From a virus (Duplodnaviria > Caudoviricetes), in the IMG/VR virus record IMGVR_UViG_3300032561_000025, positions 1 to 58,715 of that record: a stretch of 58,715 nucleotides of DNA, one strand, 5' to 3'. Positions 173 through 58,701 of this stretch are shown piece after piece. Position numbers and translations under genes: made by a program. The notes beneath the pieces are model-generated. The model saw only the letters and a list, made by a program, of their open reading frames with translations. It searched no databases and had not been told where the DNA came from. Each line of letters starts with the position of its first letter. Within the stretch, counting starts at the first letter, position 1.

Positions 173-401
173 GGTTCAAAATGCCCTTGGCTATGTTTAA
201 ACCCTCGATGACGCCTCGATTGAAATCGAAGTCGGCTTGGGTTTTCGGATCGAAATTCATCCTTCGGTCGAGGACGGTTTTCTCAAGCTGGTACTCGATG
301 TACTTCTTGAGCGGGCTGTCGGGCATCACGCGGCAGATCTCTCGGATCTGCGAGTCGGACATTCCGGTAGCCTCGGTTGCGGTCTTGACCAAAATTGACA
401 C
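162..401 (-). CDS. Small head-morphogenesis protein between portal and scaffold
   Basis: 79 aa helical protein ending F.RG.IEGL; this position between portal and scaffold is typical of podovirus head modules. TTGACG lies 35 nt upstream of the GTG. Confidence 0.65.
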   Translation of the reverse strand: MSILVKTATEATGMSDSQIREICRVMPDSPLKKYIEYQLEKTVLDRRMNFDPKTQADFDFNRGVIEGLNIAKGILNRKP

Positions 402-438
402 GCGGGAAACTTTTGAGCAAAGTCCGCTTGCGTCAATA

Positions 439-2685
439 CTAAACTGGCCGTGCTTCTGGAGGTGCGGCTGGCTTGATGATGGGGATCATCGGCCTGCTTC
501 TGGGACCGCCCTGATTGGGGGGGCCGGGCCTGCGCTGGGTTGCGCTGGGAGCCCTTGGCATACCGGGCATTGGGCGAGGGGGAACCTGACCGGGAGGGAC
601 GATGGGGACCGGCGGCATACCGGGCTGCATGAGGTGGGGTTCGTGAACGTCGATCTTTCCCATGATCTGAACGCGCTCCTCCGGGGTAAGCTGCTCCCAC
701 TTGACGGCGACGTTCATGCTGGGCCGGATCTGTTCGGGCGGCTTCTGCATGGAAGCTGCCTGCTGCTGCTGGGCCTGCTGCATCGCCTGCTGGGCCTCTG
801 CCATCTCCTGATCGCTCCAAGTATAGCTCTCGGGCTTCATTCCGGCGATGCGGAACATATCGATGAAGACGCGCTTGGGGTTGATGTTGGTCTTGCCGGG
901 CTGGAAAAGCTGCGGGAAGGTGGGCATCGACTCGATGACGCGGGTGAGTGCGGCGACCCTGCGTGCGTCCGGACCCGGCAGGGTTCCGTCGTGCGGTCGG
1001 TAGTCGAACTCGCCTTGGATGACATCCGGCGTGATCGTGATGGTGTCCTCCTGACTGCCGTCGATTTCGAGAAGGTCGGGACCCTCGATGCGCCGGATAA
1101 GCTCGCCGTCGTAGAACTGCTGGAAGTTGGCGACGATGCGCTTGGTCTGGGGGACGATTCCCTGCACGGAGAGGAGTCGGGCGATGGCAGACATCCGGCC
1201 CTGCGCCATGTGGAGCGAGCCTTGGAATGCGGTCGCGGTGGCGTCGGACTGGTTTAAACCGCCCTGCATCGACTGGGTTGCCCCGGAGGTGCTTTCGGCG
1301 AAGTTAATGAACTCCCGCATCTCGTTGATGAAGTTCGCCGTGGTGTCCACGATGGGGACCTGACGGATGATCTCGCTGATGGGAAGGTTGCCCGCCTCGG
1401 GGAGGATGGAGATGAATTTCCCCTCCTTGTCCGGGTCCTCGAAATCCTGAATGTCGATCAGGTGGCTTTTGGCGAGGAAGACGTTGCCCACGGTCCTCGT
1501 AACCGCATCCATGTGGCGGTTCTTGAGGTAGTCCACATAGTCCTGAATGTTCTTCAGGAGCATGATGTAGGACGGGGTGTATTGGTAGAAGGGTGACGGC
1601 CTCGGCTCTCCGACCGAGTACGGGAACATATCGTGCTCGTACACGGACTCATTCATGGCGAGGACTTCGCGCTCGTTGCCCATGACCACTTGGTACATCA
1701 CAGGCTCGGTGCGGTCATCGATGTCGTAGTCCTTCGGAATGATCCTTACCCAGAGTTCCACCATGCTGACAACGCCGGGATCCTTCGCGTCGTAGCGGGA
1801 ATCGAGCGGGGTGTTGATGCGGGTGCGCTCGTAGGCGGTGCGGCTGACCAGTTCCATCGCCGTGCCGCCCGTGATGGTTCCGGGTGTCGGGTAGCCCAGC
1901 GACTTCGCTGGCTTCATCTTCAATTCCTTGACCGCCCTAGGGGAAATGTAGCGCGGGTCATCGACGGGCAGCTTGGAACGCTGGTCTAGGTCGTTCCACG
2001 CGACGTTGATGCGGTGGCCGCAGAAGCGGCCCTCCTGCATCCGGTACATCGGCATATTCTGGTCGATGTAGAAATCATAGGGGCTGACCACCTCCATGCG
2101 GCAGTATCCCCCAACCCGCTTGCGGACCTTGCGAAGCTCGGTCTTGGGCTGCTGGGTTGCCGGGTCGATGACGGGCTGGCCCTCCTCGTCAACCATCGGC
2201 TCCTCGCTCCATTGCGCCTTGTAGATCGACTGGTAGCAGTCGTAGAAGATTCCCCGGTTGTAGGTCAGCGCGTTCTCGACCCAGAACCATCCAAGCTGGT
2301 AGATCCCGGCCTGCTGCTGCTCGGCGTTCCAGCAGAGCAGTTCGTTCATCGCACGCGATGCGCCCTCGTCCTTCGGAGTCCCCGGATCAACCTTGTGCGG
2401 ACACTGGTCGCCAAACAAAGTCTGGGTCAGGAACGAGGTCATCGTGTGGATGTGCGTCGTTGTGACCGGCAGGACGTAGCGGCGGGGATGGCCCTTCGCC
2501 AGCTTCACATAGTCCTGCGTTGTCATCATGTTGTAGCATTGCAGGATATCGTGAGCCACATCGTAGTCCGATGTGTAAAAGTCCAGTTGGAAGCGAGAGT
2601 TCTGCACATAGTCCGTGCAGAGTTTAAACATACGCCTGCGAAATTCTTCGTCGGCGTCTATTCTCGCTGTGAGGCTTAGTGGCAT
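439..2685 (-). CDS. Portal protein
   Basis: 748 aa downstream of TerL. Portal-like motifs VVSPYDFYID, ELWVR, KNIQD..D..KN..MD and G.....TAT, followed by a Gln/Pro-rich tail. Confidence 0.85.
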   Translation of the reverse strand: MPLSLTARIDADEEFRRRMFKLCTDYVQNSRFQLDFYTSDYDVAHDILQCYNMMTTQDYVKLAKGHPRRYVLPVTTTHIHTMTSFLTQTLFGDQCPHKVDPGTPKDEGASRAMNELLCWNAEQQQAGIYQLGWFWVENALTYNRGIFYDCYQSIYKAQWSEEPMVDEEGQPVIDPATQQPKTELRKVRKRVGGYCRMEVVSPYDFYIDQNMPMYRMQEGRFCGHRINVAWNDLDQRSKLPVDDPRYISPRAVKELKMKPAKSLGYPTPGTITGGTAMELVSRTAYERTRINTPLDSRYDAKDPGVVSMVELWVRIIPKDYDIDDRTEPVMYQVVMGNEREVLAMNESVYEHDMFPYSVGEPRPSPFYQYTPSYIMLLKNIQDYVDYLKNRHMDAVTRTVGNVFLAKSHLIDIQDFEDPDKEGKFISILPEAGNLPISEIIRQVPIVDTTANFINEMREFINFAESTSGATQSMQGGLNQSDATATAFQGSLHMAQGRMSAIARLLSVQGIVPQTKRIVANFQQFYDGELIRRIEGPDLLEIDGSQEDTITITPDVIQGEFDYRPHDGTLPGPDARRVAALTRVIESMPTFPQLFQPGKTNINPKRVFIDMFRIAGMKPESYTWSDQEMAEAQQAMQQAQQQQAASMQKPPEQIRPSMNVAVKWEQLTPEERVQIMGKIDVHEPHLMQPGMPPVPIVPPGQVPPRPMPGMPRAPSATQRRPGPPNQGGPRSRPMIPIIKPAAPPEARPV

Positions 2686-2712
2686 CGTACAGCGGGCCGC
2701 AGAGCGGCCTTG

Positions 2713-3321
2713 TTAGTCGAGATTTGCTTCCTCGGGGGAAACGGGCTTTTTCTTGAAGCCCACACCGGTATTCTTCTTCTTTCCTCCGGAATTGGTCTTG
2801 GTGGTGCCTTGCCCCTCGTCGTTGGAAGCATTCGTCTCGGTGTCTGCCTCCTCCTTCTCGCCCTCGCTCTCCTCGTCTGCGGAGCTTTCCTCGTCGGCGT
2901 TGGCACCCTTGCCCTCGGGCTCCTCCTCGGTCCCGGACTCCTCCTCGGCATTCTCCTCATCCGGGGTTTCCTTCTCCTCGTCCTCGGGCGTCTCCTCGCT
3001 CTCGGGAGTCTCGTCCGCGCCGCCCTTGCTCTCGTCCTCGGCGGTGCAGTGGGTGCAGGAAAGGGTCATCTCGGACTTGCCCGGATTTCCCGCGTCATAG
3101 CGGTCACCGGCAGACATCGCCTTGACCACGCCGTGAATCGTGGCGGTGAACTTGTCACCCACCTTGGCGTCCTCAAGGCCGAACGCGGCGATCTGCTTGC
3201 CGACCAAATCAATCCTTGGGCAAGATTTCTGCTCGCTGGGTTTCTTTCCTGAGAAAGAAGCGGTGGGTGATATGTCCCCGTATTTTTCCTTGTCGGAAAT
3301 TTCTAGCGATGTCTTTTTCAT
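2713..3321 (-). CDS. Hypothetical protein with small beta domain and long acidic tail (possible minor head protein)
   Basis: ATG at 3321. N-terminal PRIDL..KQI..FGL..AKVGD domain followed by about 75 aa of Glu/Asp-rich low complexity; lies between TerL and portal. Confidence 0.6.
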   Translation of the reverse strand: MKKTSLEISDKEKYGDISPTASFSGKKPSEQKSCPRIDLVGKQIAAFGLEDAKVGDKFTATIHGVVKAMSAGDRYDAGNPGKSEMTLSCTHCTAEDESKGGADETPESEETPEDEEKETPDEENAEEESGTEEEPEGKGANADEESSADEESEGEKEEADTETNASNDEGQGTTKTNSGGKKKNTGVGFKKKPVSPEEANLD

Positions 3322-3380
3322 CTTGGGAAATAAGTGTGGCCTTTGGGACCGAAATGACCTCAAAAAAACACAGAGTCAAT

Positions 3381-4979
3381 TCAATACGATTTCTTACGGT
3401 TTAAACTGCGCGGCTTGGTGCGGATGGGACCGGAGAGATTCTTCGCGGCTTCGTCCATCATTTTTCGGGCAAGCTGCATACAGTTGATGATGGCGTACCG
3501 CCATGCGTCGGCGATGTGGTCTGCTCCGTTCGCCCTCGGTCCCTTGACCGGTTCCCCGGAGGAATATCCGGGCTCTCCCTTGAACGGGTATCGGTATTCC
3601 CCGGCGAGGGCGCGGTGCAGGCGCGGGCAGTGAAGGCGGTCGATGCGGTACTGGTAGCGTCCTGACGGGTCCTTCATCTCCATCAGCCGGTTTCCTATGG
3701 CGATGGTGGTGTGGAGGGACCTGACGTATGTCTGGTACTTAGGGAAGAATCCGTTCGCATTGAGGACCGGGATCGAGGCTCCCGTATCCTTCCTCGCCGC
3801 GCCAGCCGGGTCGCAGAAGTCGAGGACGCCGCTGCAAATGCTCCTGTCTCCGACGAACGGGAACTGGGCCTCGGTTATCTCGATCACTGCGCGGCACTGA
3901 CGCTCAACGTCGCTCTGCTCGTCGTAATATTCGTGCAGGTCCCACCAGTATTCGAACGGGACCTGCCTGCCCCCAAGGTCGAAATCCAGCTTGAAGTACG
4001 CGCTGAATGTGACGGCGTGGGTGGATCCAAAGTCCCAGCCGCGAATAAGGTAGGCACCCTTCGGGAATGGAAGATCGACGGCGCAGTGCTTGTCCGTCTT
4101 GTAGGCGAAATAGACGGGCTTCCCCTCGAAAAGGTCGGCGTATTCCCCAAGCAGATACCGCCTGTAGTGGGCGGGCTTGTCGGCATACTGCAACTCTAGG
4201 TTCTCGATGTAGCCCTTGGGCAGGTTCTGGCGGTTCTCATGGGTGGGGATGTGCCAGAAAGCGTACCGGTCGGAGGAGGAATGCTTCTTCTCAAGGTCGG
4301 CGATCCAGTGGTCCGGGTCCGGGGGATTGGTGTCGAGGATGATGCAGTAGTCGGGGATCTCGTCCCCGTAGGCGTCCTTCCACCTCAAACACCCCACCAT
4401 CAGGTCAACGTCGCGCTCCTCCATCAGGTCGGCCTCGACCAAGATGCCCATCGAGCACTCGTAGCCGCGCAACTGCCCCTCCGACTTCTGCTCGTCCTTC
4501 AGGCCGCGAAACTCGATGTAGCTGCAAAGCCGGTCCCCCTCGTTGTCGATCCAGCTTACGATCTGCTGCCGGGTGTGGTGGCCGGAAGCCATGAACTCGT
4601 TGTAGGCATCGACCGCCGCAGCGGACGGGATCCGGACGCGCAAGCCGCCGTTCCACTTACGGAACAGGCTCAACTCCTCGTCAATGGCGATCCGGTAGCC
4701 GTACCGGTCGTAGGTGTCATTGAAGGTCTTTACCGATGTGTCCTGATTGCTGACCTGAGTCTTCCTCACGCACAGCACCTTTGCCCCCGCGAAGTTTAAA
4801 CAGTGCCTTATCGCCTCGACCGCGCACCCCGTGGTCTTTCCGCTCCCGCGCCCACCGATCAGAACCCGGATCAGCGCGGAGGAGTTGTGGAACTCGCGGA
4901 TGGACTTTCCCGGCTTGTACCAATCCTTAGGGGTGTTTTCCCTGCGCGAGGCTAGGGGTTTAGTTAGGGTTGCGGGCAT
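3381..4979 (-). CDS. terL: Terminase large subunit
   Basis: Walker A GGRGSGKT, Walker B ILVEA, DTNPP coupling motif, RNase H-like nuclease residues GWDFG and DHIADAWRY. Confidence 0.93.
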   Translation of the reverse strand: MPATLTKPLASRRENTPKDWYKPGKSIREFHNSSALIRVLIGGRGSGKTTGCAVEAIRHCLNFAGAKVLCVRKTQVSNQDTSVKTFNDTYDRYGYRIAIDEELSLFRKWNGGLRVRIPSAAAVDAYNEFMASGHHTRQQIVSWIDNEGDRLCSYIEFRGLKDEQKSEGQLRGYECSMGILVEADLMEERDVDLMVGCLRWKDAYGDEIPDYCIILDTNPPDPDHWIADLEKKHSSSDRYAFWHIPTHENRQNLPKGYIENLELQYADKPAHYRRYLLGEYADLFEGKPVYFAYKTDKHCAVDLPFPKGAYLIRGWDFGSTHAVTFSAYFKLDFDLGGRQVPFEYWWDLHEYYDEQSDVERQCRAVIEITEAQFPFVGDRSICSGVLDFCDPAGAARKDTGASIPVLNANGFFPKYQTYVRSLHTTIAIGNRLMEMKDPSGRYQYRIDRLHCPRLHRALAGEYRYPFKGEPGYSSGEPVKGPRANGADHIADAWRYAIINCMQLARKMMDEAAKNLSGPIRTKPRSLNRKKSY

Positions 4980-5691
4980 CGGAAGTCTCCAGAGTCAACT
5001 GCTCGGATCCATCGCCCTCCTCGGGCAAGCCCTGCTCGATCTTCTCGTTGATCTTCTCGACGGTTTCCCTGACGCGCTTGAGGTGCCTCGGGGCGGCGAC
5101 GATGGCCGGGATGTTGATCTGGAGCATGGGTACGAGGTTATTGCTTCCCGGCCTCGGCTGGCCAACCCCTCCCTTGACAGCGTACTCGTCCCCGTGCGCC
5201 ACCATCGAAATCTCTCCCAGCAGCTTCACGGACCGGGCAAGGTCTGAAATGGTTTCCGGATCCATGAAGGCGTCTGGGTTCTGCTCCTGCTTCGTTGAGA
5301 TCTGGTCAATGATGTGCTGGATCTGCTGCATGAGCCCGGTCGCTGCGCTGATCGTGCGGTCCCGGTTCTCCTCGATCTTCTTGAGCTTCTTCGCAATCTC
5401 GTCCGGGGACTGCTCGGGGATCGGGATCTTCCTCTGGAAAATCTCACCGTACTTGCGGATGAGCCCCGGCCAGTCCTCGTCGGAGCACCGCCTCAACAGC
5501 TTCAGGTAGGAGCAGTTCCACGCCTTCGATATTTCCCTGAGGCTTATGCCCTTCGCCGCCATGACGAAACAGGCTGCGTGGTTGATGCCGTGGTCGGTGT
5601 GCTGACGGATCTCGGGATCCGAGAGGATGACATCCTTCTTCGTGTCGCCCGTCAGTTCGGTCGGCACGGTGTTTTTCCTTACTTCACCCAC
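4960..5691 (-). CDS. Putative terminase small subunit
   Basis: Directly upstream of and overlapping terL. HTH-like segment GISLREISKAWNCS followed by coiled-coil helices. Confidence 0.55.
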   Translation of the reverse strand: MGEVRKNTVPTELTGDTKKDVILSDPEIRQHTDHGINHAACFVMAAKGISLREISKAWNCSYLKLLRRCSDEDWPGLIRKYGEIFQRKIPIPEQSPDEIAKKLKKIEENRDRTISAATGLMQQIQHIIDQISTKQEQNPDAFMDPETISDLARSVKLLGEISMVAHGDEYAVKGGVGQPRPGSNNLVPMLQINIPAIVAAPRHLKRVRETVEKINEKIEQGLPEEGDGSEQLTLETSDARNPN

Positions 5692-5694
5692 GGT

Positions 5695-5913
5695 TTAGTT
5701 TCGGGTCAGGGACGATGCGCGTGCAAAGGGATAGTCGGCTGGGGATCCTCCCCGGACGGCGGGGAGAGGGGTCTTGGCCTTGTGGACAACGCGCTCGGGC
5801 AGCTTCAGCCCCTTACTCGCCTTGTCGAACTCGGAGACAATTTTCGGGGAAATCTTCCCCTGCGCCTCAAGAACGTGGAACTTCCCCCGCTGCTTTTTTG
5901 AGACGTAGGGCAT
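5695..5913 (-). CDS. Small basic phage protein
   Basis: MPYVSKKQR...EFDKAS..LKLPERV resembles a recurrent small protein found near terminases. ATG at 5913. Confidence 0.6.
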   Translation of the reverse strand: MPYVSKKQRGKFHVLEAQGKISPKIVSEFDKASKGLKLPERVVHKAKTPLPAVRGGSPADYPFARASSLTRN

Positions 5914-5915
5914 GG

Positions 5916-6122
5916 TCAGCCTTCCCTCGACACCTCGCGCAGCCTGCTGGCGGTGTCGGACTTGAGCCACTTCGATCCGCTGTCCTCGCACGCGCCCTCG
6001 GCGGAAGACCCGCAAGGCGTCCCCTCGGGGGCGTCATTGTGCTGGGCCTGAGGCTTGTCGGGACGGGAGGTGAACTGGTGGATGGGTGGGTTTTGGGGGA
6101 GATGGTCGGGATTGTTGTTCAT
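5916..6122 (-). CDS. Hypothetical protein
   Basis: 68-aa ORF packed tightly in the operon; GTTTAAAC lies just upstream of the ATG. Confidence 0.45.
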   Translation of the reverse strand: MNNNPDHLPQNPPIHQFTSRPDKPQAQHNDAPEGTPCGSSAEGACEDSGSKWLKSDTASRLREVSREG

Positions 6123-6136
6123 GGTTTAAACGGGGA

Positions 6137-6298
6137 CTAGCCCTTGACTTTTTTTAGCGCGGGGTTGGCGTGCTTGGCCTTGGCACTCGCATTGTGAGCA
6201 CCGGAAGCGATGATTGCCGCCGCCCTTGCGAACGGCATTCCCTCCTTCGACGCGACCTTTTCGGCGACGGCCTTGAAGCCGGGATGTGCTTTGCTCAT
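6137..6298 (-). CDS. Small basic protein (53 aa, not in ORF track)
   Basis: Manual translation MSKAHPGFKAVAEKVASKEGMPFARAAAIIASGAHNASAKAKHANPALKKVKG; ATGA overlap with the upstream gene. Confidence 0.7.
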   Translation of the reverse strand: MSKAHPGFKAVAEKVASKEGMPFARAAAIIASGAHNASAKAKHANPALKKVKG

Positions 6299-6546
6299 AG
6301 GATGATCATCTGTCCCGATTTATTCGGAAACGCAAGTCTGACAGCCGATTTTGGCGGGCGACCGGGGTAGCCGGGTTGCCACGGCTTCCGGTTCGTGATC
6401 GACCTCCAGCACTCGTCGCAATGCTGCGCGTAGTGCTCACGCGGCTTGCCGCAAATGATGCACCGGCCAGATTCCTTCATCTTGATCTGCCAGCGTCTCT
6501 GCCGGGAGACTCCCTTTCTCGGGTTCTTTGGAATGGGTGATGCCAT
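6295..6546 (-). CDS. Small Zn-finger protein
   Basis: CIICG...HCDEC with a basic N-terminus; TTGACA lies 41 nt upstream. Confidence 0.6.
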   Translation of the reverse strand: MASPIPKNPRKGVSRQRRWQIKMKESGRCIICGKPREHYAQHCDECWRSITNRKPWQPGYPGRPPKSAVRLAFPNKSGQMIIL

Positions 6547-6594
6547 GTGCTTTCACACCATTCCCTGCCATTTTCCGGCAGTGTCAATACTTGT

Positions 6595-6909
6595 TTAAAC
6601 CACAGCGAGTTGACGGTGCTGATCCTCTACGTTCTCGATCCCTTGGTATGCCTGCACGGGCTCCTGCAAAAACCCCTTGGCGCGTTCCTTGGTGGGAGCC
6701 GCGTGGGACTGCCTCATGTGGTGCCGGTTACCCGCCCAGACCCTCGTTGAGACAATCCTGACCCCGTGGAAGGGTCCGCGATGCCAAGCCATGATAGCAC
6801 CCCTCACCGTTGTCCCAAGGCTCCACGTTGTGAAGACAACCTCGTTACCGAACCCGTCAACCCCACTGTACTTGATTTCGACCAGAAACCGTTTCGTCCA
6901 GTGGTTCAT
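6595..6909 (-). CDS. Hypothetical protein
   Basis: 104-aa ORF in the operon; its stop codon lies within a GTTTAAAC site. Confidence 0.5.
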   Translation of the reverse strand: MNHWTKRFLVEIKYSGVDGFGNEVVFTTWSLGTTVRGAIMAWHRGPFHGVRIVSTRVWAGNRHHMRQSHAAPTKERAKGFLQEPVQAYQGIENVEDQHRQLAVV

Positions 6910-6921
6910 CGGGGTGCCCGT

Positions 6922-7239
6922 TTAAACTTGGGACGGATCCGGCTTTGGCTTTGGCTCCAAGGGCCGGTAGTTCCACTCAGCCGCAAGCTCGCTGATCACG
7001 TTCGTCAGGCGCGTGTAGAAATCTCTTTCTTCCCAAGTCGGGGTATGAAATGGGGCCGAGATGCTGACATCTTTCATAATCGACGGCCCCACCTTACAAT
7101 TGACCGTGCGCTGGCACGCAAGCGTTATCCGAACCGTGTCCACTTGTTTCATCGGGTTGTTTGAAAACCCGTTGTCGAACGAAAATCCGGCCTGATGTCC
7201 GCAGAACGGGCAGCATTTGACGATGGGTAGGCTGTTCAT
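6922..7239 (-). CDS. Lar-like zinc-ribbon protein
   Basis: CPFCG near the N-terminus, a later C....C pair and WN.R near the end, the pattern of the Lar restriction-alleviation family. Confidence 0.55.
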   Translation of the reverse strand: MNSLPIVKCCPFCGHQAGFSFDNGFSNNPMKQVDTVRITLACQRTVNCKVGPSIMKDVSISAPFHTPTWEERDFYTRLTNVISELAAEWNYRPLEPKPKPDPSQV

Positions 7240-7355
7240 GTCAGTTTGTACTCCCAGATTTCACGACCGTTCGAAACCCTGCGCTGCGACTTCTTGTGCG
7301 CCCCGGTTTTCTTGATTATCTTTCTGACGATCAGCGACCGGACAGGCGCGCTCAT
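7236..7355 (-). CDS. Small basic protein (39 aa, not in ORF track)
   Basis: MSAPVRSLIVRKIIKKTGAHKKSQRRVSNGREIWEYKLT, with ATGA overlaps on both sides. Confidence 0.5.
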   Translation of the reverse strand: MSAPVRSLIVRKIIKKTGAHKKSQRRVSNGREIWEYKLT

Positions 7356-8233
7356 TTCTTCACCTCCGTCGCGCTCGCGGCCTCCTTCGGCCTGTTGTCT
7401 TTAACGATGGTCGCGCCACTGTAGATCCCCCCTATCAGGCCAGAGAAGTATCCCCGAATCTCGTTCACGGTGCCGCCACAAATCTTGTTCACGGTGCCGC
7501 AACAAATCGCGTTCACGGTGCCGCCACAAATCTCGTTCACGGTGCCGCCACAAATCGCGTTCACGGTGCCGCCCCAAATCGCGTTCACGGTGCCGCCCCA
7601 AATCGCGTTCACGGTGCCGCCACAAATCGCGTTCACGGTGCCGCCACAAATCTCGTTCACGGTGCCGCCACAAATCGCGTTCACGGTGCCGCCCCGAATC
7701 TCGTTCACGGTGCCGCCACAAATCTTGTTCACGGTGCCGCCCCGAATCTCGTTCACGGTGCCGCCACAAATCTTGTTCACGGTGCCGCCCCAAATCGCGT
7801 TCACGGTGCCGCCACAAATCGCGTTCACGGTGCCGCCACAAATCGAGGAAATAACCATCGCGTGCGCACATTCGATCTTCGCGGAAGGAGCGATCACAAA
7901 TTGGCCGCCGATCAGGAGCGCAACGTCGCCTGTAACGATGATGCCCGAGACGTATTGCTTCATGCGCTCGATCACGGCGTCCTGGATTTCGTCCGTGAAC
8001 CATTCGGGTTTTCGCTCCTCGTCGAGATTGAATTTGTAGGTTTCGACCTGATGCGCTGTGGCAAGGCTTTCGGGCGAGAACTCGATCTTGGCGTAATTCA
8101 GGCGCGGACCGTAGTTGAGTTTGAAGATGGTCTCCAATTCCGAATGGGATTCGGTCCAGGGAGACAGCAGAAGGCGAAAACCGCCCTTTGCGGATTCGTC
8201 TTGAACGGCGATGGCTGACTTGTAATTGCACAT
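7352..8233 (-). CDS. Protein with 16x octapeptide repeat (predicted beta-solenoid)
   Basis: N-terminal MC..KSAI...ESHSEL domain followed by I[CWR]GGTVN[AKE] x16. Confidence 0.8.
   Translation of the reverse strand: MCNYKSAIAVQDESAKGGFRLLLSPWTESHSELETIFKLNYGPRLNYAKIEFSPESLATAHQVETYKFNLDEERKPEWFTDEIQDAVIERMKQYVSGIIVTGDVALLIGGQFVIAPSAKIECAHAMVISSICGGTVNAICGGTVNAIWGGTVNKICGGTVNEIRGGTVNKICGGTVNEIRGGTVNAICGGTVNEICGGTVNAICGGTVNAIWGGTVNAIWGGTVNAICGGTVNEICGGTVNAICCGTVNKICGGTVNEIRGYFSGLIGGIYSGATIVKDNRPKEAASATEVKK
7451..7843. repeat. 24-bp tandem repeat, 16 copies
   Basis: Unit gttcacggtgccgccacaaatcgc and variants, read directly from the sequence. Confidence 0.95.
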
Positions 8234-8245
8234 AGTGGGAGTGGG

Positions 8246-8425
8246 TTAAGGTGTTTTATCCGTCGCGCTCGCGGAGAGGGCGGCGTCGTGCGAGAGGAGG
8301 TCGCGGCGTTCATAGATAACGCTCCACCCTTCCAATTCTTCGGGAGGAAGCGAAACGGCGTGTTTGGCTATCTCAGCCAGTCTCTCATCCGTCATTCTGT
8401 CCGGTTGCGAAGCGGGGGTTGTCAT
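8246..8425 (-). CDS. Hypothetical protein (59 aa, not in ORF track)
   Basis: MTTPASQPDRMTDERLAEIAK...; SD-like AGGAG upstream. Confidence 0.5.
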   Translation of the reverse strand: MTTPASQPDRMTDERLAEIAKHAVSLPPEELEGWSVIYERRDLLSHDAALSASATDKTP

Positions 8426-8455
8426 GGGGTTATGTCTCCTATTGAAATAAGGTGA

Positions 8456-8677
8456 TTATCCCTTGGCGACAGGTATCCGCCGAAGCGCGGCCCCAAGTTC
8501 AAGGGCGTTAGGCTCTGGCGAGTGAATCACGGCAACGGGCTTCCCCTGCTTAGTGACGGTGAAGGTTTTTCCCTGCTGAACCTGTGCAATCAGGTCGCCC
8601 GGTTGGGCGCGTAGATCGGACATCGTTATTGTTTCCGTTTCGCCTTCAAGGAGACGTAGGTATCGGAGTCGTTTCAT
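8456..8677 (-). CDS. Phd/YefM antitoxin-like protein
   Basis: TITMSDLR....LI..VQQG..FTVTKQGKPVAVI matches the Phd/YefM DNA-binding fold. Confidence 0.75.
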   Translation of the reverse strand: MKRLRYLRLLEGETETITMSDLRAQPGDLIAQVQQGKTFTVTKQGKPVAVIHSPEPNALELGAALRRIPVAKG

Positions 8678-8710
8678 AATTTACGTGTCGCAATGGGATA
8701 CTCGCCTAAG

Positions 8711-9388: not shown

Positions 9389-9433
9389 AAGTTTTTAGCC
9401 CTCCCGGCGTCTCTACGTTGATGATTGAGACGG

Positions 9434-10072: not shown

Positions 10073-10078
10073 GGCGTA

Positions 10079-11002: not shown

Positions 11003-11006
11003 AAAC

Positions 11007-12344: not shown

Positions 12345-12372
12345 ATTTAACATAATGGAACTTGTGCGAAGT
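12345..12372 (-). other. dif-like XerC/XerD recombination site
   Basis: Minus strand reads ACTTCGCACAA-GTTCCA-TTATGTTAAAT. The right arm is identical to the E. coli dif XerD arm, the geometry is 11-6-11 and the left arm is XerC-like. Confidence 0.8.
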
Positions 12373-13900: not shown

Positions 13901-13926
13901 ACGCTGAACCGAAAAAGGGCAATCCG

Positions 13927-14796: not shown

Positions 14797-14818
14797 TTGT
14801 TTAAACGAAAGGTCAAAA

Positions 14819-43398: not shown

Positions 43399-43401
43399 AC
43401 A

Positions 43402-50071: not shown

Positions 50072-50929
50072 TCAATAGGTCACAATTACAATCCCAGAAC
50101 CTCCAAACCCCGGAGCTACGTTTGTTTGGCTTCCTGAGTAACCGCCGCCACCTCCACCACCGGATCCAGTGTTGGGAGTTGCATCCGTGGCGACACCATT
50201 GTGGTCACCACCATGCCCAGCACCGGCTGTTCCGGGCGGCGTGGAATAATTACCTCCAACGCTGGCGACTCCGGTTGCCCCGCCTCCCCCACCGGCTCCA
50301 TAATACACACCGGCATAAAGATACCCGGTCCCACCATTGCCGCCAACTCCTCGGGTTGAGTAGACCCCATCTGAGCCTGTGGATGCCTGACCGCCGCCAC
50401 CACCTCCCGCCGAATTTGCCCCATTGCCTCCGGTATTTCCTTGCCCGGCTGTACCGGAACCGGGGTTCGAATAAGTTGCCGCTGCTCCACCGCCTGACCC
50501 ACCGGTTGCTCCAGCGGAGTTGTAATATCCTCCATGACCACCTCCCACCGCGACAAGGGTTCCAAATATCGATGACCCTCCATTCGTATCCCAAGAACCA
50601 TAATTTCCTACGGTTACCGTAATGGTTGATCCCGGCGTGACCGAATAGGTTGTGTTTCGGATTACGCCGCCGCCGCCGCCGCCGCCGCCAGCCTCACCGT
50701 CAGGAGTTGTTGCCTCTCCGCCACCACCACCGCCGCCCACCACAAGGACATCAACACTCGTTATACCCACAGGCACCGTCCAGCTTGTCGTTCCAACCGT
50801 GCTGAACGTGACTGTTCCGTGGGACACAACCTGACCCCACAGACCAAACGGGATCTGCTGAAAGGCGATAAGCGGGGCGCATACCGCCACCGCGCACGCG
50901 ATCAGGAATAGCTTAGTAGTTCTGGACAT
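50072..50929 (-). CDS. Signal-peptide glycine-rich fibre-tip-like protein
   Basis: F...[22 protein letters not shown]...[10 protein letters not shown] glycine-rich domain after a signal peptide. Confidence 0.7.
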
Positions 50930-52547
50930 AGGAGCCTTGCAGATAACCGGATACGGCGTTGTATTTTACCGTGTAGGTGTCCGTGTGCGTCCCTGAAGTC
51001 ATTATCGGAGCGTTATTGCTGGGCCATTTCATTGTGGGCCAAGTAACCGTGTAGGCATTCGCACCCGTCTGGTGGATGTCGATGGTGATTATTTGCCCGT
51101 CCTGAACATGGGCGAAGGAAATCGTGCAGTTTCCACCGCCAACCGTGGTCAGGGTAAGGTCAAAGGAATTGCTCAGAGCCCAGTCGATTGTCGCCGCGCC
51201 ACCGCTTTCCGTAACTGTCACCGTACCCGGTGTCATGTTTTGGTTCGCCGCAGCCACCGTTGTCGCCCCGGTCCCGCCATTGCCCACTGCAAGCGTTCCA
51301 GTTACTCCTCCGCTGCCCGAGGTAGAGAGATTAATCGCGTTGACGGTGACCGTACCAGCCGTGTTCGTAAGGCCCGTAGAAAAGGTCAGAGCGGTCGGAT
51401 TAGGGATTGCGAACCATCCTTTAGTTCCTCCGCTGTTCGTCCCGTAATAATAACTGTTCCCCGGAGAAGCACTGTCGTTGGTCAGCGTGACCGTGCCTGA
51501 GGAATTGTAGACCGACTGGGAAAACGTGTACGCGGTCCCCGGAGGCGTTGCCCATGTCCCGTCTCCGCGCCAGTACGTCGATGCCGATGCCGATGTCCCG
51601 CTGTTTAAATTCCCAACCGGGAGATTCCCGGTCACCCCGCCGGATCCCGCGCTCGCAAGGCTGATTGCGTTTACCGTAATCGTCCCGAGGGTATTTGTCA
51701 GGCCGGTCGAGAACGAAAGTGCTGTCGGATTCGCAATGGCGAACCAGCCGCGAGTCCCGCTTGAATTTGTCCCGTAGTAGTACGAGGCCGCAGGAGTAGG
51801 GGTATCCCCGGTTAGGGTGATCGTCCCGGATCCATTCGTGACGGATTGGGCAAATGTAAGCGTCGATTGCTTACCGGCCAGCGCACTGCTCAAGTCCGTC
51901 TGTGCAGAAAGCGTTCCTCCAATCGATCCCCAGTTTGCACTGCCTGCCCCTCCTGACGCATTCAGCGTGCTGCCAGACATCGAAAGGTTTGTTCCCAGAG
52001 TCGCGTTCGCCCATGCCGATCCGTTCCAATAAAGAAAATTATTCAGGGACGGAGTGGCCGGTGCTGTGATCCTTGCGTTCAGTGCCGTGTTTAAATCGGT
52101 CTGGTTCGATAGGGTTCCCGTGATTGATCCCCACGTTCCGCTCCCACTTGCGTTAAGGGTCGCCCCGGCAAGGGAAAGATTCGTCCCCAGAGTAATATTT
52201 GTAAATCCACCGGATCCGTTTCCCGCGAGAAGCTGGCTCGTTGTTGCCGTCGTAACCGGTGCCTTGGTGCCAAGAGCAGAGACGAGATCGGTCTGGTTTG
52301 TAAGCGTTCCGGTGATCGCACCCCATGACGCGCTTCCCCCTGTCCCCCCCACAATCGTTACCCCGGTGAAATCCACAGTGATTCCGGAACTAAAATTGTA
52401 GTAGGTTATCCCCGAAGTGTTGATCGTTCCGATGTGTCCCGATGTCCCGTTTGGCAACACCGTGACCGCCTGATGCTGGGCTAACGCGCCGCCACAAATT
52501 GCCAGCGAAAACCAAACCGTAAAGATCAGTTTAAACAGATTTTTCAT
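50913..52547 (-). CDS. Signal-peptide repetitive fibre protein
   Basis: Signal peptide ending ALA-Q, WG.I.GTL..QTDL x3, a duplicated ~85-aa block and [14 protein letters not shown]. Confidence 0.7.
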
Positions 52548-54080: not shown

Positions 54081-54097
54081 AAGAGTTCCTGTTTAAA

Positions 54098-54748
54098 CTA
54101 GAAGCCAGACATCCTGAACCTTCTTCCGCGAACCTCGCGGAAGCCGTCATCCGCAGCCGCAAGCTGGTACTGACGCTCAACTTCGGCCTGCGCAGCCTGT
54201 GCCATCTGCAAGGCGTCCGGGGTTCCAACGTGCCGGTAGGCGTACTGCTTCGCCTGTTCAAGCACCAGCATTGGATATTCCTTCGTCAGGTAATTCGAAT
54301 CCGTACCACCGGACAGGTCCGCAAAATAAAGGTAGCAGTCGAGTTGGAAGGTGGTCGTTGATCCGACCTGACCCAGAGTGTTTAAACTCCAGTTCGTGCC
54401 GTCGAAGTCGATGTACGCCTTCCGGTCCGGGGCTCCAACCTGAATCTCCAGCAGCCGCATCACCTCCTGCTTGCTGTAGAGAAACCAGTTCACAAACCCC
54501 TGCGGCGTTGTCGCATCCGTTCCGCGCAGTGGATTGATTCCGCTCTGCGGCTCCTTGAACGTAGCGGGCAGGTTGACCGATCCGTTCCCTCCGGGAATCG
54601 TCAGGCTGATCGTGTTCTTCATGCCGCGCCACGACCGCCTACGCTGTAGCTCGGACAGGGCCGTGTTGACCCATGTGGTCAGAATCCCGATCTGCGTGTC
54701 CTGCTTGGTGCAGTCGAGGAGAAGGGTCCGGTATTGGTCTAAGGTCAT
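54098..54748 (-). CDS. Head-tail adaptor / tail tubular protein A-like (paralog 2)
   Basis: WVN.A..ELQR, LP..FKEPQ.G and YLT..YP..VL; located after the capsid genes. Confidence 0.65.
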   Translation of the reverse strand: MTLDQYRTLLLDCTKQDTQIGILTTWVNTALSELQRRRSWRGMKNTISLTIPGGNGSVNLPATFKEPQSGINPLRGTDATTPQGFVNWFLYSKQEVMRLLEIQVGAPDRKAYIDFDGTNWSLNTLGQVGSTTTFQLDCYLYFADLSGGTDSNYLTKEYPMLVLEQAKQYAYRHVGTPDALQMAQAAQAEVERQYQLAAADDGFREVRGRRFRMSGF

Positions 54749-54751: not shown

Positions 54752-55390
54752 TTATTCCTTGTCGGGCCGGGGCGCGGCGTTCGCCGCTCCAACATCGACC
54801 CCGGTTATCCGCTGCATCTCAGTCTGCCACGCCTGCTCATGCTCCTGCCACACCGGATCGCTGATTGACTGGAAAATCAGGGAAAGCGTCTTCGACAGGA
54901 TTGCGTTCGGGTAAAACGTCAGCAATGGCGTACCCTTTGTCAGGTCGGTCACCACATCCGGGTAGGCGTAGTAATAGACGAGGATCGCCCATGCCGCCGA
55001 TGCCACCGCAGGAGGCAGCAAACCTAGCTGGAAGGCCGAGTTGTCCTGCGTGAATACCAAGTATGGGCTTGGAAGGAACGAAGCCGCCAGACGCTCTATT
55101 TCGCTCCTGCTGTAGACCGGGCAGGGTGCCTGCGTCCCGCTTCCGATCTTTGCAAACGACCAGAACCTCCCGTTCTGCGGCTCCTTCCAGTTCAGCGGAA
55201 GGGCAATCGTTCCCGCACCGGCTGGCAACGTCACCGTCGCCGTCGCCTTCATCTGCTCAAATGAATGCGCCGCCGCCGTGTCACGAACCGCCCGATTGAT
55301 GAAATCCGCGTAGCTCGGCGCAATATCCGGCCTGTTTACACTCGTATTCAGGATGGCGATTACGTCGTTGAAACTTTGGGGAATTGCCAT
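54752..55390 (-). CDS. Head-tail adaptor / tail tubular protein A-like (paralog 1)
   Basis: NRPD.....DFIN.A, LP..WKEPQ.G and LLT.YP..IL. Confidence 0.65.
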   Translation of the reverse strand: MAIPQSFNDVIAILNTSVNRPDIAPSYADFINRAVRDTAAAHSFEQMKATATVTLPAGAGTIALPLNWKEPQNGRFWSFAKIGSGTQAPCPVYSRSEIERLAASFLPSPYLVFTQDNSAFQLGLLPPAVASAAWAILVYYYAYPDVVTDLTKGTPLLTFYPNAILSKTLSLIFQSISDPVWQEHEQAWQTEMQRITGVDVGAANAAPRPDKE

Positions 55391-55408
55391 GTTAGTTTAA
55401 ACGAAACG

Positions 55409-56074: not shown

Positions 56075-57295
56075 TCAGCCAGCGATGATCTTCTGGAGGC
56101 TGTTCGCGTACCCGAAGGCTTGCGCGAACTTCAGCTTCAGGCCGTACTTGGCCCGGAACTGCTCCTTGTAGGCGTCCTGTCCGGGAGTCTGGACGTTCGG
56201 CTCCAAGAACAGGGGCTCCATCACCTTCATCACGACGTTCGGCAGATCGACCACGAACATCGAGGACTGGTAGGCGGTGGACTCCTGTAGGAGCGGGTGG
56301 AACGTCAGTTCCAGAATCCCGAACGGCGTGACGATGGTCGTGATGTTCATCCCGAACACCGTCTCGTTGTTCATGATGCGGAAGCCGCTCGCCGCGCTGT
56401 TCGCGTAGTTGCTGACCGCCGCAAAGGCATTCGGGCCGCAGAAGGCCAGCTTCGACGGGCTTCCGAACACCATGAAAGACTGGAGCCACGCGAGGAACGT
56501 GGACAGCGGGCATCCGGCGGCACCGAGGCCGTTCAGGATGTTGCTGGTGTACCCACCCTTGACGAGGGCATCACGGATGCCGCCCGTCGAGTAGATGTAC
56601 GCGCCGTTCGTCGCGCCGATCAGGCGGTTGCGCCGCCCGAGCAGGAAGCTCTTCTCGATGTCGCCGGAAACCTTTTCCAGCGCGTAGATCCGGCGTTCCC
56701 GCAGCGGACCCGCCATGTCCGTCCTCAGGACCGTCCCCTTGTAGGCGTTGGTCAGGAATACCGAGGCGTTGAACGTCTCGACGTAGTTCACCAACTCGTC
56801 CGGGGTCTCGTAGATCGAGGTCGTGGGGGCCGATCCCTCCTCCGCCGTCACCGCGATCCGCGTCCACAGGTCGCCGATCAGCACCGCTGCCGCCGTCGTT
56901 CCCGCATGGCCGCGCTCCACGCTAACCGCCGAACTCGTCGCGTCGGCGGTCACCCGCACGAACTCTCCCGTCCGCGAGTTCTCCAGCACCGTGTTCAGGG
57001 CCAGTCCCGGCCAAACCGCATTCGCCGGGGTCCCGCCGTCGTTCCACCCAAGGGTGGTCACGCTCGCGTTATACCCCGCGTCGGAGTAATAGTCGTTGCG
57101 AACCGGATTCCGCTCAAACCAGTGGAACTCCGTCGCCTCCGCGTTTTCTTTCCTCAACATCGTCATCAACGCGAAGAGGACGGCACCGCTTCCGATCCCC
57201 TTGGCATGACGGACAGTTACGTGCTGCTGCCACTCGCCAGTGAGATCATCCGGGTCCGCGTTCTGAACGGACAGTAGGCCAGAAATTAAAGACAT
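56075..57295 (-). CDS. Major capsid protein (SU10 / DUF5309-like HK97 fold)
   Basis: EFHWFE, NY.ETF, E...DIE..FL.G, TGGI and TPFG.L...HP motifs; follows the scaffold; strongest codon bias in the window. Confidence 0.85.
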   Translation of the reverse strand: MSLISGLLSVQNADPDDLTGEWQQHVTVRHAKGIGSGAVLFALMTMLRKENAEATEFHWFERNPVRNDYYSDAGYNASVTTLGWNDGGTPANAVWPGLALNTVLENSRTGEFVRVTADATSSAVSVERGHAGTTAAAVLIGDLWTRIAVTAEEGSAPTTSIYETPDELVNYVETFNASVFLTNAYKGTVLRTDMAGPLRERRIYALEKVSGDIEKSFLLGRRNRLIGATNGAYIYSTGGIRDALVKGGYTSNILNGLGAAGCPLSTFLAWLQSFMVFGSPSKLAFCGPNAFAAVSNYANSAASGFRIMNNETVFGMNITTIVTPFGILELTFHPLLQESTAYQSSMFVVDLPNVVMKVMEPLFLEPNVQTPGQDAYKEQFRAKYGLKLKFAQAFGYANSLQKIIAG

Positions 57296-57304
57296 GATTG
57301 GAAC

Positions 57305-57350
57305 TCCTGTTTGGGTTTAAACTGTGCTACGATGCAGGACCCAAACAGGA
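57305..57350 (-). promoter_or_regulatory. 12-bp perfect stem overlapping the capsid SD
   Basis: TCCTGTTTGGGT (57305-57316) is the reverse complement of ACCCAAACAGGA (57339-57350). Confidence 0.6.
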
Positions 57351-57501
57351 ATATAGTCCTTATGTCAACAACTTTCGTCCTTACGGAAAGTTTGGGATGT
57401 AAACTATTGCGGCCTTTTAGCCTACAATAGATCGTACCGACGCTCCGAGATAACGCCTATTTCCGAATGAAACGATTCAGAAAAACGTATCCCTACAATA
57501 A

Positions 57502-58701
57502 CTACATCAGCGATTCGATGGCCGACTTCTGGAATCCGCGATCCTTGCCACCTCCCTGCCCCGTGGGAGCGGGAACATTTCCCGCCGGGGGCTGCGGGGT
57601 GCGCCGTGCAGGCGCGGCAGCGGGTCTGGCAGCGGGTGCTGCTGGCTGTGCCTTTGCGGAAGCTGGCGCGGCGGGAGCGGCCTGACCGAATCCCTTGTCG
57701 TATTTTCGGATGTGGTTCACGGTGAGATCAACGGTCATCTTGTTGAACTCAGCCTGCGACATCTTGGCTACGGCCTCGGGGTTCTGCTTGATGAGAGCGT
57801 TCGCGTATTCTCGGACGAGATCCATGTGGGGCTCGATGTAGGGATATTCCGCAATGAGTTCCCCCTCGATGCGCTGCTCCTCGGCCTGAATGTGGACTGA
57901 GTTTAAACGGTCCACGGCTTCGATCATGGGCTTGAACTGGTTCACGATGTCCTTGCGAACTTCGATCAGTGCGCGGGCCATGTCCTTGCGGCGAACCTCC
58001 TCGAAAGCCTTGATGCCCTCGGGTCCCCCGGTGAGGATCTTGTCCATCGTCTCGTCATCGATGGGCGTGGGCTTGAGTTTCTTTGAGGCATCCTCGATCC
58101 AGTCGGATTCCTTCTTGGCAAGCTCGGAGGCGGCAGCGGCCTGCTGCTCCGGAGTCTTGTCGGAAGGCTTTGCTGCTGCGGCGGCAGCGGCGGCAGCGGC
58201 GGCGGCGGAGTCGATTTCCTCCTTGGTGGTAGCCTTGGCTTCCTTCTCGGTGAGGAGCTTCTGAAGTTCCTCGGCGGTGTACTCCTTGTCGCCAACCTTG
58301 ATCTTGGAGGGGGCTTCCGGCTCCTTCTTGGCGGCGGGCTTCGCGGGCTGCTTGGGAGCCTTGGCGGCGGGCTTTGCGGCGGGAGCCTCGGGCTTTTTGT
58401 CTGCGGGAGCCTTCTTTTCGGGCTCAACCGGGGGCTTTTCGTCGGCGGGGGGAGTGCTTGCCTTGCCCTCGTCGGGAGGCGTTTCCTCCGCGTGCTGCGT
58501 CTCCATCTTGTCCGGATCGGGGGTGCCGGGAGCCTTTTCGGGCTCGGGGGCGATGGACTCCTTGTCACCGGCCACGCCGCGCAGGGATGCGGCTAGGCTC
58601 CAGTCCTTAGGAAGGCCGAAGGCGTCTGAGACGGAGACTCCGGGGAGTCTTCCAGAATCTGCGGGAGGAGTTGCGGCAGCGGATGGCGGCATGGTTGGCA
58701 T
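57502..58701 (-). CDS. Capsid scaffolding protein
   Basis: Pro/Ala/Glu/Lys-rich N-terminus, KIKVGDKEYT.EEL motif and coiled coil; directly upstream of the major capsid gene. Confidence 0.75.
   Translation of the reverse strand: MPTMPPSAAATPPADSGRLPGVSVSDAFGLPKDWSLAASLRGVAGDKESIAPEPEKAPGTPDPDKMETQHAEETPPDEGKASTPPADEKPPVEPEKKAPADKKPEAPAAKPAAKAPKQPAKPAAKKEPEAPSKIKVGDKEYTAEELQKLLTEKEAKATTKEEIDSAAAAAAAAAAAAKPSDKTPEQQAAAASELAKKESDWIEDASKKLKPTPIDDETMDKILTGGPEGIKAFEEVRRKDMARALIEVRKDIVNQFKPMIEAVDRLNSVHIQAEEQRIEGELIAEYPYIEPHMDLVREYANALIKQNPEAVAKMSQAEFNKMTVDLTVNHIRKYDKGFGQAAPAAPASAKAQPAAPAARPAAAPARRTPQPPAGNVPAPTGQGGGKDRGFQKSAIESLM

Follow-up and report, generated by a model that had tools for sequence, protein, structure and literature searches.

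A palindromic word dispersed through the genome of an SU10-type podovirus and a candidate reader from a phage family of SprT-like zinc-ribbon proteins

Introduction

The stoperators and operators of the Cluster A mycobacteriophages (L5 gp71, Bxb1 gp69) are 13-bp asymmetric sites, oriented with transcription and bound by the helix-turn-helix immunity repressor of temperate phages that infect one host genus. HIP1 (GCGATCGC) of the cyanobacteria is a hyper-abundant 8-bp palindrome, independent of reading frame and written into genes, and is a property of the host chromosome. Chi sites and the DNA uptake sequences and uptake signal sequences (DUS/USS) are host-encoded, species-specific and oriented, and they mark self DNA for a protein machine. 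Here we consider the 8-bp palindrome GTTTAAAC, the restriction site of PmeI, in a stretch of viral DNA (Duplodnaviria; Caudoviricetes) that comprises the complete IMG/VR record IMGVR_UViG_3300032561_000025 (58,715 bp; 57.8% guanine plus cytosine, GC; CheckV completeness 93%). This whole stretch is hereafter called the window, and the gene at 14819-15505 (+ strand) encodes our candidate for the protein that reads the word.

The resemblance to stoperators is close in outline, as dozens of copies of a short word are spread genome-wide, in and between genes, with what appears to be a single phage-encoded DNA-binding reader. The window differs in that the word is an 8-bp palindrome, or in other phages a one-base variant of it, found in both orientations; the candidate reader belongs to the SprT-like family and has a zinc ribbon; the carriers span many bacterial phyla; and no integrase turned up among the roughly 60 window open reading frames (ORFs) scanned. 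HIP1 is likewise an 8-bp palindrome that is hyper-abundant, frame-independent and present within genes, but in a carrier of GTTTAAAC the chromosome shows no enrichment, the word keeping to the phage element. Chi, DUS and USS are also over-represented short words, whereas GTTTAAAC follows a phage gene and is common to phages whose hosts are unrelated.

For the candidate reader the nearest described proteins are the DNA-dependent metalloproteases SPRTN, Wss1 and SprT and the anti-restriction protein ArdC, which bind DNA by structure and not by sequence; we know of no member of these groups that has been tied to a genome-wide word. Typical members of the phage family resemble SPRTN, Wss1 and SprT in having, as judged from their motifs, an HExxH zincin core and, after it, a small subdomain that binds zinc and DNA, while the window protein has lost the catalytic core and has no Pfam match of its own. 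In a Cluster AZ preprint (10.1101/2025.05.26.655371) a homologue is named a DNA-binding SprT-like protease, and a natural N-terminal truncation of it (Liebe versus Maureen) accompanies clear rather than turbid plaques, which would be a further likeness to the stoperator system. A jumbo-phage survey mentions SprT-like and ArdC-like peptidases only as likely anti-host proteases. Our literature searches on the word, its variant and SprT-like phage proteins, in which the supplements of the Cluster AZ preprint were not covered, returned no paper on a pairing of word and protein and none on enrichment of the word, in keeping with an earlier reading of the window from its letters (the original prediction), which knew of no described phage system using it.

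From the comparisons presented below we think it probable that the zinc ribbon of the 14819-15505 product is the reader of GTTTAAAC, and that the phage has been selected to carry the word at roughly kilobase spacing.

Abundance and placement of the word

Thirty-six exact copies of GTTTAAAC lie between positions 195 and 57908 of the window, the same number and span as originally predicted. A mononucleotide model gives an expectation of 0.43 copies, where the prediction had estimated fewer than one, and dinucleotide-preserving shuffles contain 0.29 copies on average and two at most, with none of 100 reaching 36. The excess, put originally at about 100-fold, is thus some 85- to 125-fold, and the word is the most frequent of all 8-mers in the window. 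About 19 copies altered at one flank had also been reported, and these are present as GTTTAAAT (nine, at the predicted places), ATTTAAAC (two), CTTTAAAC (three), TTTTAAAC (three) and GTTTAAAA (two). Of 58 TTTAAA hexamers in the window, 36 are flanked by G and C, and conservation is confined to the eight bases, no further flanking base being conserved.

Gene calls for the window are our own heuristic ones, and the reading frames, the shuffles within genes and the counts of coding and non-coding copies all depend on them. Twenty-four of the 36 copies are wholly within the bodies of coding sequences, 16 being read as x-Leu-Asn with the rare TTA codon and eight as Phe-Lys. The remaining 12 are in spacers or at gene boundaries, and four of these provide a TAA stop codon, so that the frames (F-K, L-N through the rare TTA, and stop) and the spacer copies are as had been described. 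These 12 non-coding copies are an excess, as only 8.7% of the sequence lies outside coding-sequence bodies (p 3e-5), and copies within 60 nucleotides (nt) of a start codon are also too many (11 of 36, versus 12.8% expected; p 0.004).

The spacing is looser than the 0.5-1.5 kb first suggested, the gaps averaging 1649 bp and running from 220 to 7024. The coefficient of variation of 0.91 fits random placement (37% of simulations are as low), and a minimum gap as large as the 220 bp seen here occurs in only 0.7% of 20000 simulations.

Selection on the DNA

It had been proposed that selection acts here on the DNA rather than on protein, and that a codon-preserving shuffle reproducing the count would argue otherwise. 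When synonymous codons were shuffled within each gene, which leaves about eight non-coding copies untouched, 500 shuffles gave a mean of 9.8 copies and a maximum of 14, so that the observed 36 are not reproduced. The dipeptide Leu-Asn is coded TTAAAC in 23 of 68 pairs, yet TTA accounts for just 63 of 1293 Leu codons, and 15 of those 63 fall within the word. At seven sites that could be compared with orthologues in two relatives, the residues differ in 12 of 13 comparisons; in the thirteenth the residues are the same, with three synonymous changes that include a switch of Ser codon family. The shuffles, the use of TTA and the residues of the relatives all agree with the proposal, and we conclude that GTTTAAAC is a dispersed cis-signal, as the original prediction held, kept by selection on the DNA word. 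Contigs of four runs compared with window positions 1-20000 have 31 variable places, none of them within the 16 word copies there, a check without power because only about 0.2 would be expected in the copies by chance.

The only relatives found are two phages with 65-69% identity in the large terminase (TerL) and 72-74% in the capsid protein, and a further search for terminase relatives in metagenome contigs returned the same two. There are no copies of GTTTAAAC in the 13.9 kb and 47.6 kb of these relatives, and a profile search found no reader-family gene in them, although its positive control on the window worked. Five bacterial genomes that encode a family homologue (3.9-8.4 Mb) have 7-19 copies of GTTTAAAC per strand versus 30-82 of the control word CAAATTTG, a reversed palindrome of equal composition, and the copies of GTTTAAAC concentrate at the family-gene loci. 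In Novosphingobium sp. FKTRR1 (5.0 Mb) 11 of the 14 copies are on one phage-like contig of 28.4 kb that carries the family gene, and the control word occurs 30 times. Enrichment in the host chromosome, which the prediction had named as grounds for giving up its view, is therefore not seen in this one carrier case. The word is neither a host nor a lineage signature.

Partner search in viral contigs

We scanned viral contigs for pairs of GTTTAAAC 300-330 bp apart, which returned at least 119 loci. Of the 119 listed, 67 show enormous enrichment, the extreme being 37 copies in 12.4 kb, and their GC contents span 32% to 63%. When all of the roughly 70 window proteins were compared with the 119 loci by tblastn, the product of 14819-15505 matched 12 loci, its two upstream neighbours three and two, and the nuclease gene 42253-43398 one (weakly), making 14819-15505 the only window gene that recurs widely in the GTTTAAAC-rich viral loci listed. 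A profile built from the tblastn matches located the family in 38 loci, and all-against-all clustering of 2650 ORFs ranked the same family first, with 35 rich and no poor loci.

Word and family co-occur. Within the fetched fragments the family is present at 37 of 67 rich loci versus 0 of 37 poor loci (Fisher 7.6e-10), and a search of whole records brings the rich loci to 44 of 67. Two rich records reach a completeness of 90% or more, and both are positive. The poor records searched contain the family in 2 of 42 cases, and in none of the seven that are at least 90% complete; one of the two positives stems from a fragment that is actually rich. The reverse test gives the same picture, with 447 stretches in viral contigs encoding a relative of the family. 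The best 80 of the 447, picked by protein alone, all have at least three copies of GTTTAAAC, for a total of 744 copies in 912 kb versus 11.2 expected and five of the control word. These 80 loci are not independent events, because all encode near kin of a single member (its closest relatives, at 56-100% identity) and the contigs of several were already part of the first sample.

A control scan for pairs of CAAATTTG returned 120 loci, four of which are rich in their own word by the same rule; these 120 loci contain no family genes and 17 copies of GTTTAAAC in 1.13 Mb. The four control loci, among L238-L357, have 7, 11, 12 and 16 copies of CAAATTTG and may represent another word system.

Word and protein in cultured phages

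Homologues are encoded in 164 cultured phage records. Ten cultured phages were counted over their whole records, with the ribbon status taken from the alignment and GTGTAAAC, an asymmetric one-base variant of GTTTAAAC (T to G at position 3), counted on both strands. Word and protein co-vary in this set. Persinger, the Escherichia phage ECO1230-10, Mano and the Pseudanabaena phage Pan1, whose homologues have the ribbon, carry 4, 5, 4 and 16 copies of GTTTAAAC, respectively, and none of GTGTAAAC. The Arthrobacter phage Crewmate as well as Barnstormer, Intolerant and 4A, also with the ribbon, respectively carry 0, 0, 1 and 1 copies of GTTTAAAC and 21, 23, 40 and 13 of GTGTAAAC. All eight ribbon-bearing phages therefore carry one word or the other. 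The homologues in CN1 (no GTTTAAAC, one GTGTAAAC) and Psa21-HRN (neither word) are without the ribbon cysteines and the QxTR motif, and the reversed control words are absent from all ten phages.

The four GTGTAAAC phages cluster on the protein tree. No alternative palindrome stood out in the phages that have the protein without GTTTAAAC, whereas the asymmetric GTGTAAAC did. Its strand split in Crewmate, Barnstormer, Intolerant and 4A is 7/14, 15/8, 21/19 and 9/4, and all 14 TGTAAA hexamers in the 29 kb of Crewmate that we examined are inside the full 8-mer. Each of the four GTTTAAAC phages has one copy within about 80 nt upstream of the family gene, as does the window (copy at 14799). The word as an operator of the family gene was considered and rejected, since a copy is present within 100 nt upstream at 16 of 114 loci, about the chance level.

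The candidate reader and its family

The protein encoded at 14819-15505 (P0001, 228 aa) appears to begin with a disordered stretch rich in Pro and Glu, continues with what remains of a zincin-like domain, and ends in a zinc ribbon, QATRMIKAKCPVCG...R...W...CPMPGCG. A family profile (A1) matches the window at this protein with E values of 5.7e-18 and 2.6e-9, and the tblastn search ties it to 12 HExxH-bearing or related ORFs; on these matches we assign its origin to the SprT-like family. Pfam is less informative. The SprT-like model PF10263 has no match in the window at E<=1 and none to P0001 at E<=0.01, and scans of about 60 window ORFs returned no SprT match and no Pfam match of any kind for P0001. 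Among 32 aligned homologues, PF10263 matches 15 at E<=0.01 (best 1.8e-7), and L030 scores 21 bits against a cut-off of 25.6. Zn_ribbon_SprT (PF17283) has no match in the window and matches none of the 32 members at E<=0.01, and we regard the family ribbon as a different one, as yet unnamed.

A typical member has about 190-240 aa, an N-R-E-x-W-L start, an HExxH zincin core, L-G-x-Y-P-H, and then the ribbon region K-K-Q-x-T-R-M-L-K-x-x-C-P-x-C-G ... R ... W ... C-P; the columns invariant over 32 family sequences are E, P, R and two C. P0001 has the N-R-E-x-W-L start, Y-P, Q-x-T-R-(M/L)-x-K and the ribbon cysteines. It has no HExxH, about 45 residues spanning the motif being deleted relative to L030. 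Its five nearest relatives in a collection of 5.8 billion proteins (P0002-P0006, 37-44% identity) have the same deletion of the core, likewise without HExxH and with the ribbon kept, and a quick tree places the six in a strongly supported clade. The protease-less form is thus conserved and not a wreck. No close relatives of P0001 were found in viral contigs or metagenome contigs, and a search with an alignment of the clade recovered only distant full-length members.

Ten more members are without HExxH, and their loci are among the richest of all, L013 with its 37 copies in 12.4 kb being an example; some very rich records retain just a ribbon ORF of 60-111 aa. As judged from the alignments, the ribbon is the constant feature wherever the word is found, and loss of the protease core in a conserved, word-carrying clade would mean that reading of the word needs no proteolysis.

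In structural comparisons the P0001 model (pLDDT, predicted local distance difference test, 84.7) was weakly matched by VIA-align to minigluzincins (Z 5.5), SPRTN (6mdx, Z 5.3) and Wss1 (Z 4.5), scores below the tool's reliable level, and its ribbon weakly resembles MCM zinc fingers (Z 4.2). Foldseek returned nothing for the model at E<=0.001, and a sequence search of solved structures gave nothing significant. The model of one typical member (pLDDT 93.6) has as its best PDB match the SprT domain of human SPRTN on DNA (6mdw), a weak match at E 0.012.

Two arrangements of the family gene elsewhere deserve a comment. In Beijerinckiaceae and other Alphaproteobacteria (L219-L227, L230) a single genome can contain as many as three or more copies of the gene, and each copy has exactly two GTTTAAAC about 1.5-1.6 kb apart, the first intragenic and the second about 1.2 kb upstream. 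The arrangement resembles a small multi-copy element that has its own local site pair, and not a genome-wide array. In the very word-rich lineage of L013 (6907-8914), the family gene is beside genes for an Amidoligase_2 protein and a class-II glutamine amidotransferase.

The three-gene module

The candidate reader gene is the last of a conserved trio, which forms one operon in the window. The others are a MoxR-like AAA_5 ATPase gene at 12899-13900(+) (Pfam AAA_5, E 9.6e-5) and a DUF7192 gene at 13870-14796(+) (Pfam DUF7192, E 1.1e-28), which holds the slot taken by a vWA protein in other phages. The vWA partner at L008 has HExxH motifs and the window DUF7192 protein has none. At 86 of 118 loci the family gene has an AAA_5 homologue within 1.5 kb, and at 67 of 118 it has a vWA or DUF7192 homologue within 3.5 kb. 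In the annotated part of Crewmate, no AAA+ or vWA gene is annotated beside the SprT-like gene, which adjoins a DNA methylase gene; because of this arrangement we take the SprT-like gene to be the common denominator.

Copies of the word along the window

At the left end, 195-202 is read G-L-N inside ORF 162-401(-). The portal gene contains 1252-1259 (G-L-N; QVGS or QPAA in the relatives) and 2622-2629 (M-F-K-L; VLKM or LLKI in the relatives), and the large terminase gene contains 3399-3406 (S-L-N-R, where one relative has identical residues in other codons) and 4794-4801 (C-L-N-F; CNHY or CTHY in the relatives). The copy at 6124-6131 is in an intergenic spacer, while 6593-6600 and 6920-6927 provide the TAA stops of ORF 6595-6909(-) and ORF 6922-7239(-), the latter copy being 11 nt upstream of the next start codon.

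The next copy is 13944-13951, in the DUF7192 gene (E-F-K-L). The longest word-free stretch thus extends from 6928 to 13943 (7.0 kb, a length not significant by itself); its GC content is lower (55.3%), as is GC at third positions, and it holds accessory-looking genes (Imm5-like/DUF7666, Rha/P63C and the MT-A70 methyltransferase). In run X17 a single contig of low depth jumps over 8767-11883. The region may be a variable island of recent acquisition, in which the word has not yet appeared.

Copy 14799-14806 is in the 22-nt spacer before the candidate reader gene, directly in front of its ribosome-binding site and ATG, and 15276-15283 is within that gene (G-L-N). To the right of it are 16198-16205 in ORF 15923-16258(+) (K-F-K-L), 16571-16578, which provides the TAA stop of ORF 16355-16576(+), and 16791-16798, intergenic by the heuristic calls, followed by 18552-18559 in the DnaB-like helicase gene (L-F-K-Q), 19581-19588 in ORF 19359-20204(-) (G-L-N) and 20507-20514 in ORF 20319-20762(-) (A-F-K-H). 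The 2179-aa ORF 23640-30179(-) contains four copies (24528-24535, 27261-27268, 28758-28765 and 29915-29922), and ORF 31464-32306(-) one (32031-32038). A virion protein ORF at 35131-37494(-) contains 36568-36575, with 37531-37538 in the intergenic spacer 37 nt upstream of its start.

ORF 38141-39220(-) contains 38638-38645, and 39077-39084 is at its boundary with ORF 39106-40956(-). Copy 41813-41820 is in ORF 41016-42251(+) (L-F-K-Q), and 43393-43400 provides the TAA stop of the PD-(D/E)XK nuclease gene (DUF2800) at 42253-43398(+). Single copies are in ORF 44150-44761(-) (44465-44472) and ORF 48569-50056(-) (49601-49608). In the tail-protein ORF 50913-52547(-), 52529-52536 is 11 nt inside the start. 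Near the structural genes at the right end, 54091-54098 is in the spacer between a collar-domain gene and an adaptor gene, 54380-54387 is in the SU10-type adaptor gene 54098-54748(-) (VLVL in a relative), 55395-55402 is 5 nt upstream of the start of the adaptor gene 54752-55390(-), and 57315-57322 is 20 nt upstream of the start of the major capsid gene. The last copy, 57901-57908, is in ORF 57502-58701(-) (R-L-N-S; KQEP or ELDS in the relatives).

Other features of the window

By its gene content the window is identified as an SU10-type podovirus, with an SU10 portal gene at 439-2685(-), a large terminase gene at 3381-4979(-), the two SU10-type adaptor genes given above and an SU10 major capsid gene at 56075-57295(-). 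Other genes with assignments are the MT-A70 adenine methyltransferase at 9434-10072(-) and the DnaB-like helicase at 17962-19362(-). Pfam scans of about 60 ORFs of this 93%-complete record turned up no integrase and no CI-like repressor. The same stretch is present in 20 freshwater or lake-water metagenome DNA runs, and no RNA run is listed as holding it.

GC-rich palindromes of 6 bp are nearly missing from the window (CGGCCG 1, GCCGGC 2, GGCGCC 2, GCGCGC 1, CCGCGG 1), whereas in the nearest relative CGGCCG occurs 50 times and GCCGGC 42 times over a 20-kb stretch, a contrast suggestive of strong restriction avoidance particular to the window phage. TCCGGA (54) and GGATCC (51) are about 3-fold above expectation. 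A 15-base string occurs 15 times, mostly with a 24-bp period, at 7463-7837 inside ORF 7352-8233(-), which has HTH_26 and beta-helix-repeat matches, and the array encodes a tandem 8-residue protein repeat. The 616-aa product of 39106-40956 has a weak glycoside-hydrolase-130-like region and a Methyltransf_24 domain, and an adjoining gene (37545-38174) encodes a family-25 glycosyltransferase; the two may have a joint role in modification of surface sugars.

Discussion

We infer direct binding of the word by the protein, and what this binding would achieve, from the comparisons above. The original prediction had offered a menu of possible functions, among them a binding site, a site of modification or nicking, a self-mark and a packaging signal; what has been added is that the binding site on that menu can be tied to a phage protein, the product of 14819-15505, by co-occurrence and co-variation. 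If the ribbon is indeed the reader, the word would have accumulated under selection to about one copy per 1.6 kb, at a cost in rare codons and amino-acid changes and with copies packed into spacers, and the conserved C-terminal ribbon (Q-x-T-R-M/L-x-K ... C-x2-C ... R ... W ... C) would be the probable reading head. The ancestral ribbon would have kept a DNA-dependent metalloprotease attached to the chromosome of the phage itself. In the window clade the protein would be a genome-wide mark or regulator of phage DNA, and because the protease core is deleted, the activity conserved there would be occupancy of the word itself. Occupancy might silence or organise transcription in a stoperator-like manner, or it might flag phage DNA for the AAA+ and vWA partners. 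The truncated homologue with clear plaques would point to the stoperator-like regulatory or silencing role, and the AAA+ and vWA partners together with the ancestral protease would suggest instead that proteins on phage DNA are remodelled or removed.

A more specific proposal, which we put forward tentatively and think may well prove wrong, is that the word is an address label. It would direct the ribbon reader, itself descended from a DNA-dependent protease, together with a MoxR-type AAA+ ATPase and a vWA adaptor onto phage DNA only, where the machine would strip or degrade host proteins (silencers, nucleases, stalled complexes); in the window clade it would work protease-free, by occupancy or remodelling, and in some phages its specificity would have shifted by one base, from GTTTAAAC to GTGTAAAC. 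The word would then serve self-recognition through sequence instead of base modification, a notion that is possible but for now doubtful.

Several observations weigh against the ribbon as reader. The support is co-occurrence throughout, and kinship among the loci inflates the counts. For the protease-less clade of P0001 the pairing of word and protein comes from one genome, the window. The clearest exception is record G034 (locus L112; 17.9 kb, inverted terminal repeats, 81% complete, 36% GC), which is word-rich (10 GTTTAAAC in 8.4 kb) and has no family match; it may have a different reader. Conversely, some loci encoding members with both HExxH and ribbon are poor in both words, as are L234 (no GTTTAAAC and one GTGTAAAC in 20.7 kb) and, as a partial exception, L235 (none and three in 16.3 kb), and the Beijerinckiaceae elements hold just two GTTTAAAC each, both at the family gene. 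The copy upstream of the family gene is at a frequency close to chance for loci of those densities. A palindrome suggests a dimer, whereas the asymmetric GTGTAAAC suggests a monomer, and the fold matches are weak (Z 5.3-5.6).

The exception of G034 would also fit a different arrangement, in which some other factor reads the word (the AAA+ protein, the vWA or DUF7192 protein, another phage protein, or a host nucleoid protein or RNA polymerase) and the SprT-like gene merely travels with it. The whole module co-occurs with the word, in the proportions given above, and binding by the SprT-like protein is argued from co-occurrence. However, Crewmate has the SprT-like gene and the word variant with no AAA+ or vWA gene annotated beside them, the phages of the two ribbon-less homologues (CN1 and Psa21-HRN) have lost both words, records with only a ribbon ORF remain rich, and a host reader would have to be common to Escherichia, Pseudomonas, a cyanobacterium and Actinobacteria; we consider a co-travelling gene rather unlikely. 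A host explanation of another kind would have a mutational, repair or methylation bias enrich the palindrome and the phage mirror it. HIP1 is a similarly abundant 8-bp palindrome that is mirrored in some cyanophages. This reading was rejected, and we hold it to be extremely unlikely, given that relatives at 65-69% TerL identity have no copies, that viral contigs of 32% to 63% GC are enriched in the same word, that in the five carrier genomes the word is rarer than the control word and concentrated at family loci, and that sites were created through amino-acid changes.

The excess of copies in non-coding sequence and near start codons is what a transcription signal would produce, whether a promoter element, a terminator or a stoperator-like roadblock, acting on host or phage RNA polymerase independently of the SprT-like protein. 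Spacers may also be the cheapest spot in which to write the word, two-thirds of the copies (24 of 36) are inside genes in both usable frames, and there is no -35/-10 or hairpin context, because no flanking base is conserved, so that a signal of this kind seems very unlikely. About as unlikely, in our judgement, is that DNA chemistry takes place at the word, be it nicking, modification of a base or decoying of restriction enzymes, with the MT-A70 methyltransferase encoded at 9434-10072 as one enzyme that could target it. That gene, the methylase gene beside the SprT-like gene in Crewmate and the identity of GTTTAAAC with the PmeI site would fit such a role. Yet the list of the 20 gene clusters that recur most at word-rich loci, nine of them identified by Pfam, includes no methyltransferase, the window proteins that match rich loci are the 14819-15505 product, its two neighbours and one weak single match, and pressure from methylation or restriction gives avoidance or tolerance and not an excess of about 100-fold.

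Should the ribbon prove to be the reader, the finding would give a testable function to a widespread and so far uncharacterised phage family (447 relatives in viral contigs, 164 cultured records). It would be the second case, after the mycobacteriophage stoperators, of a whole coding sequence shaped around the site of one protein, and a far more widespread one. The natural switch of specificity (T to G at position 3) and the natural protease-less variants could be used to dissect the mechanism. The word would also serve as a simple sequence marker of the phage module, and would explain the high frequency of PmeI sites in some GC-rich phage genomes.

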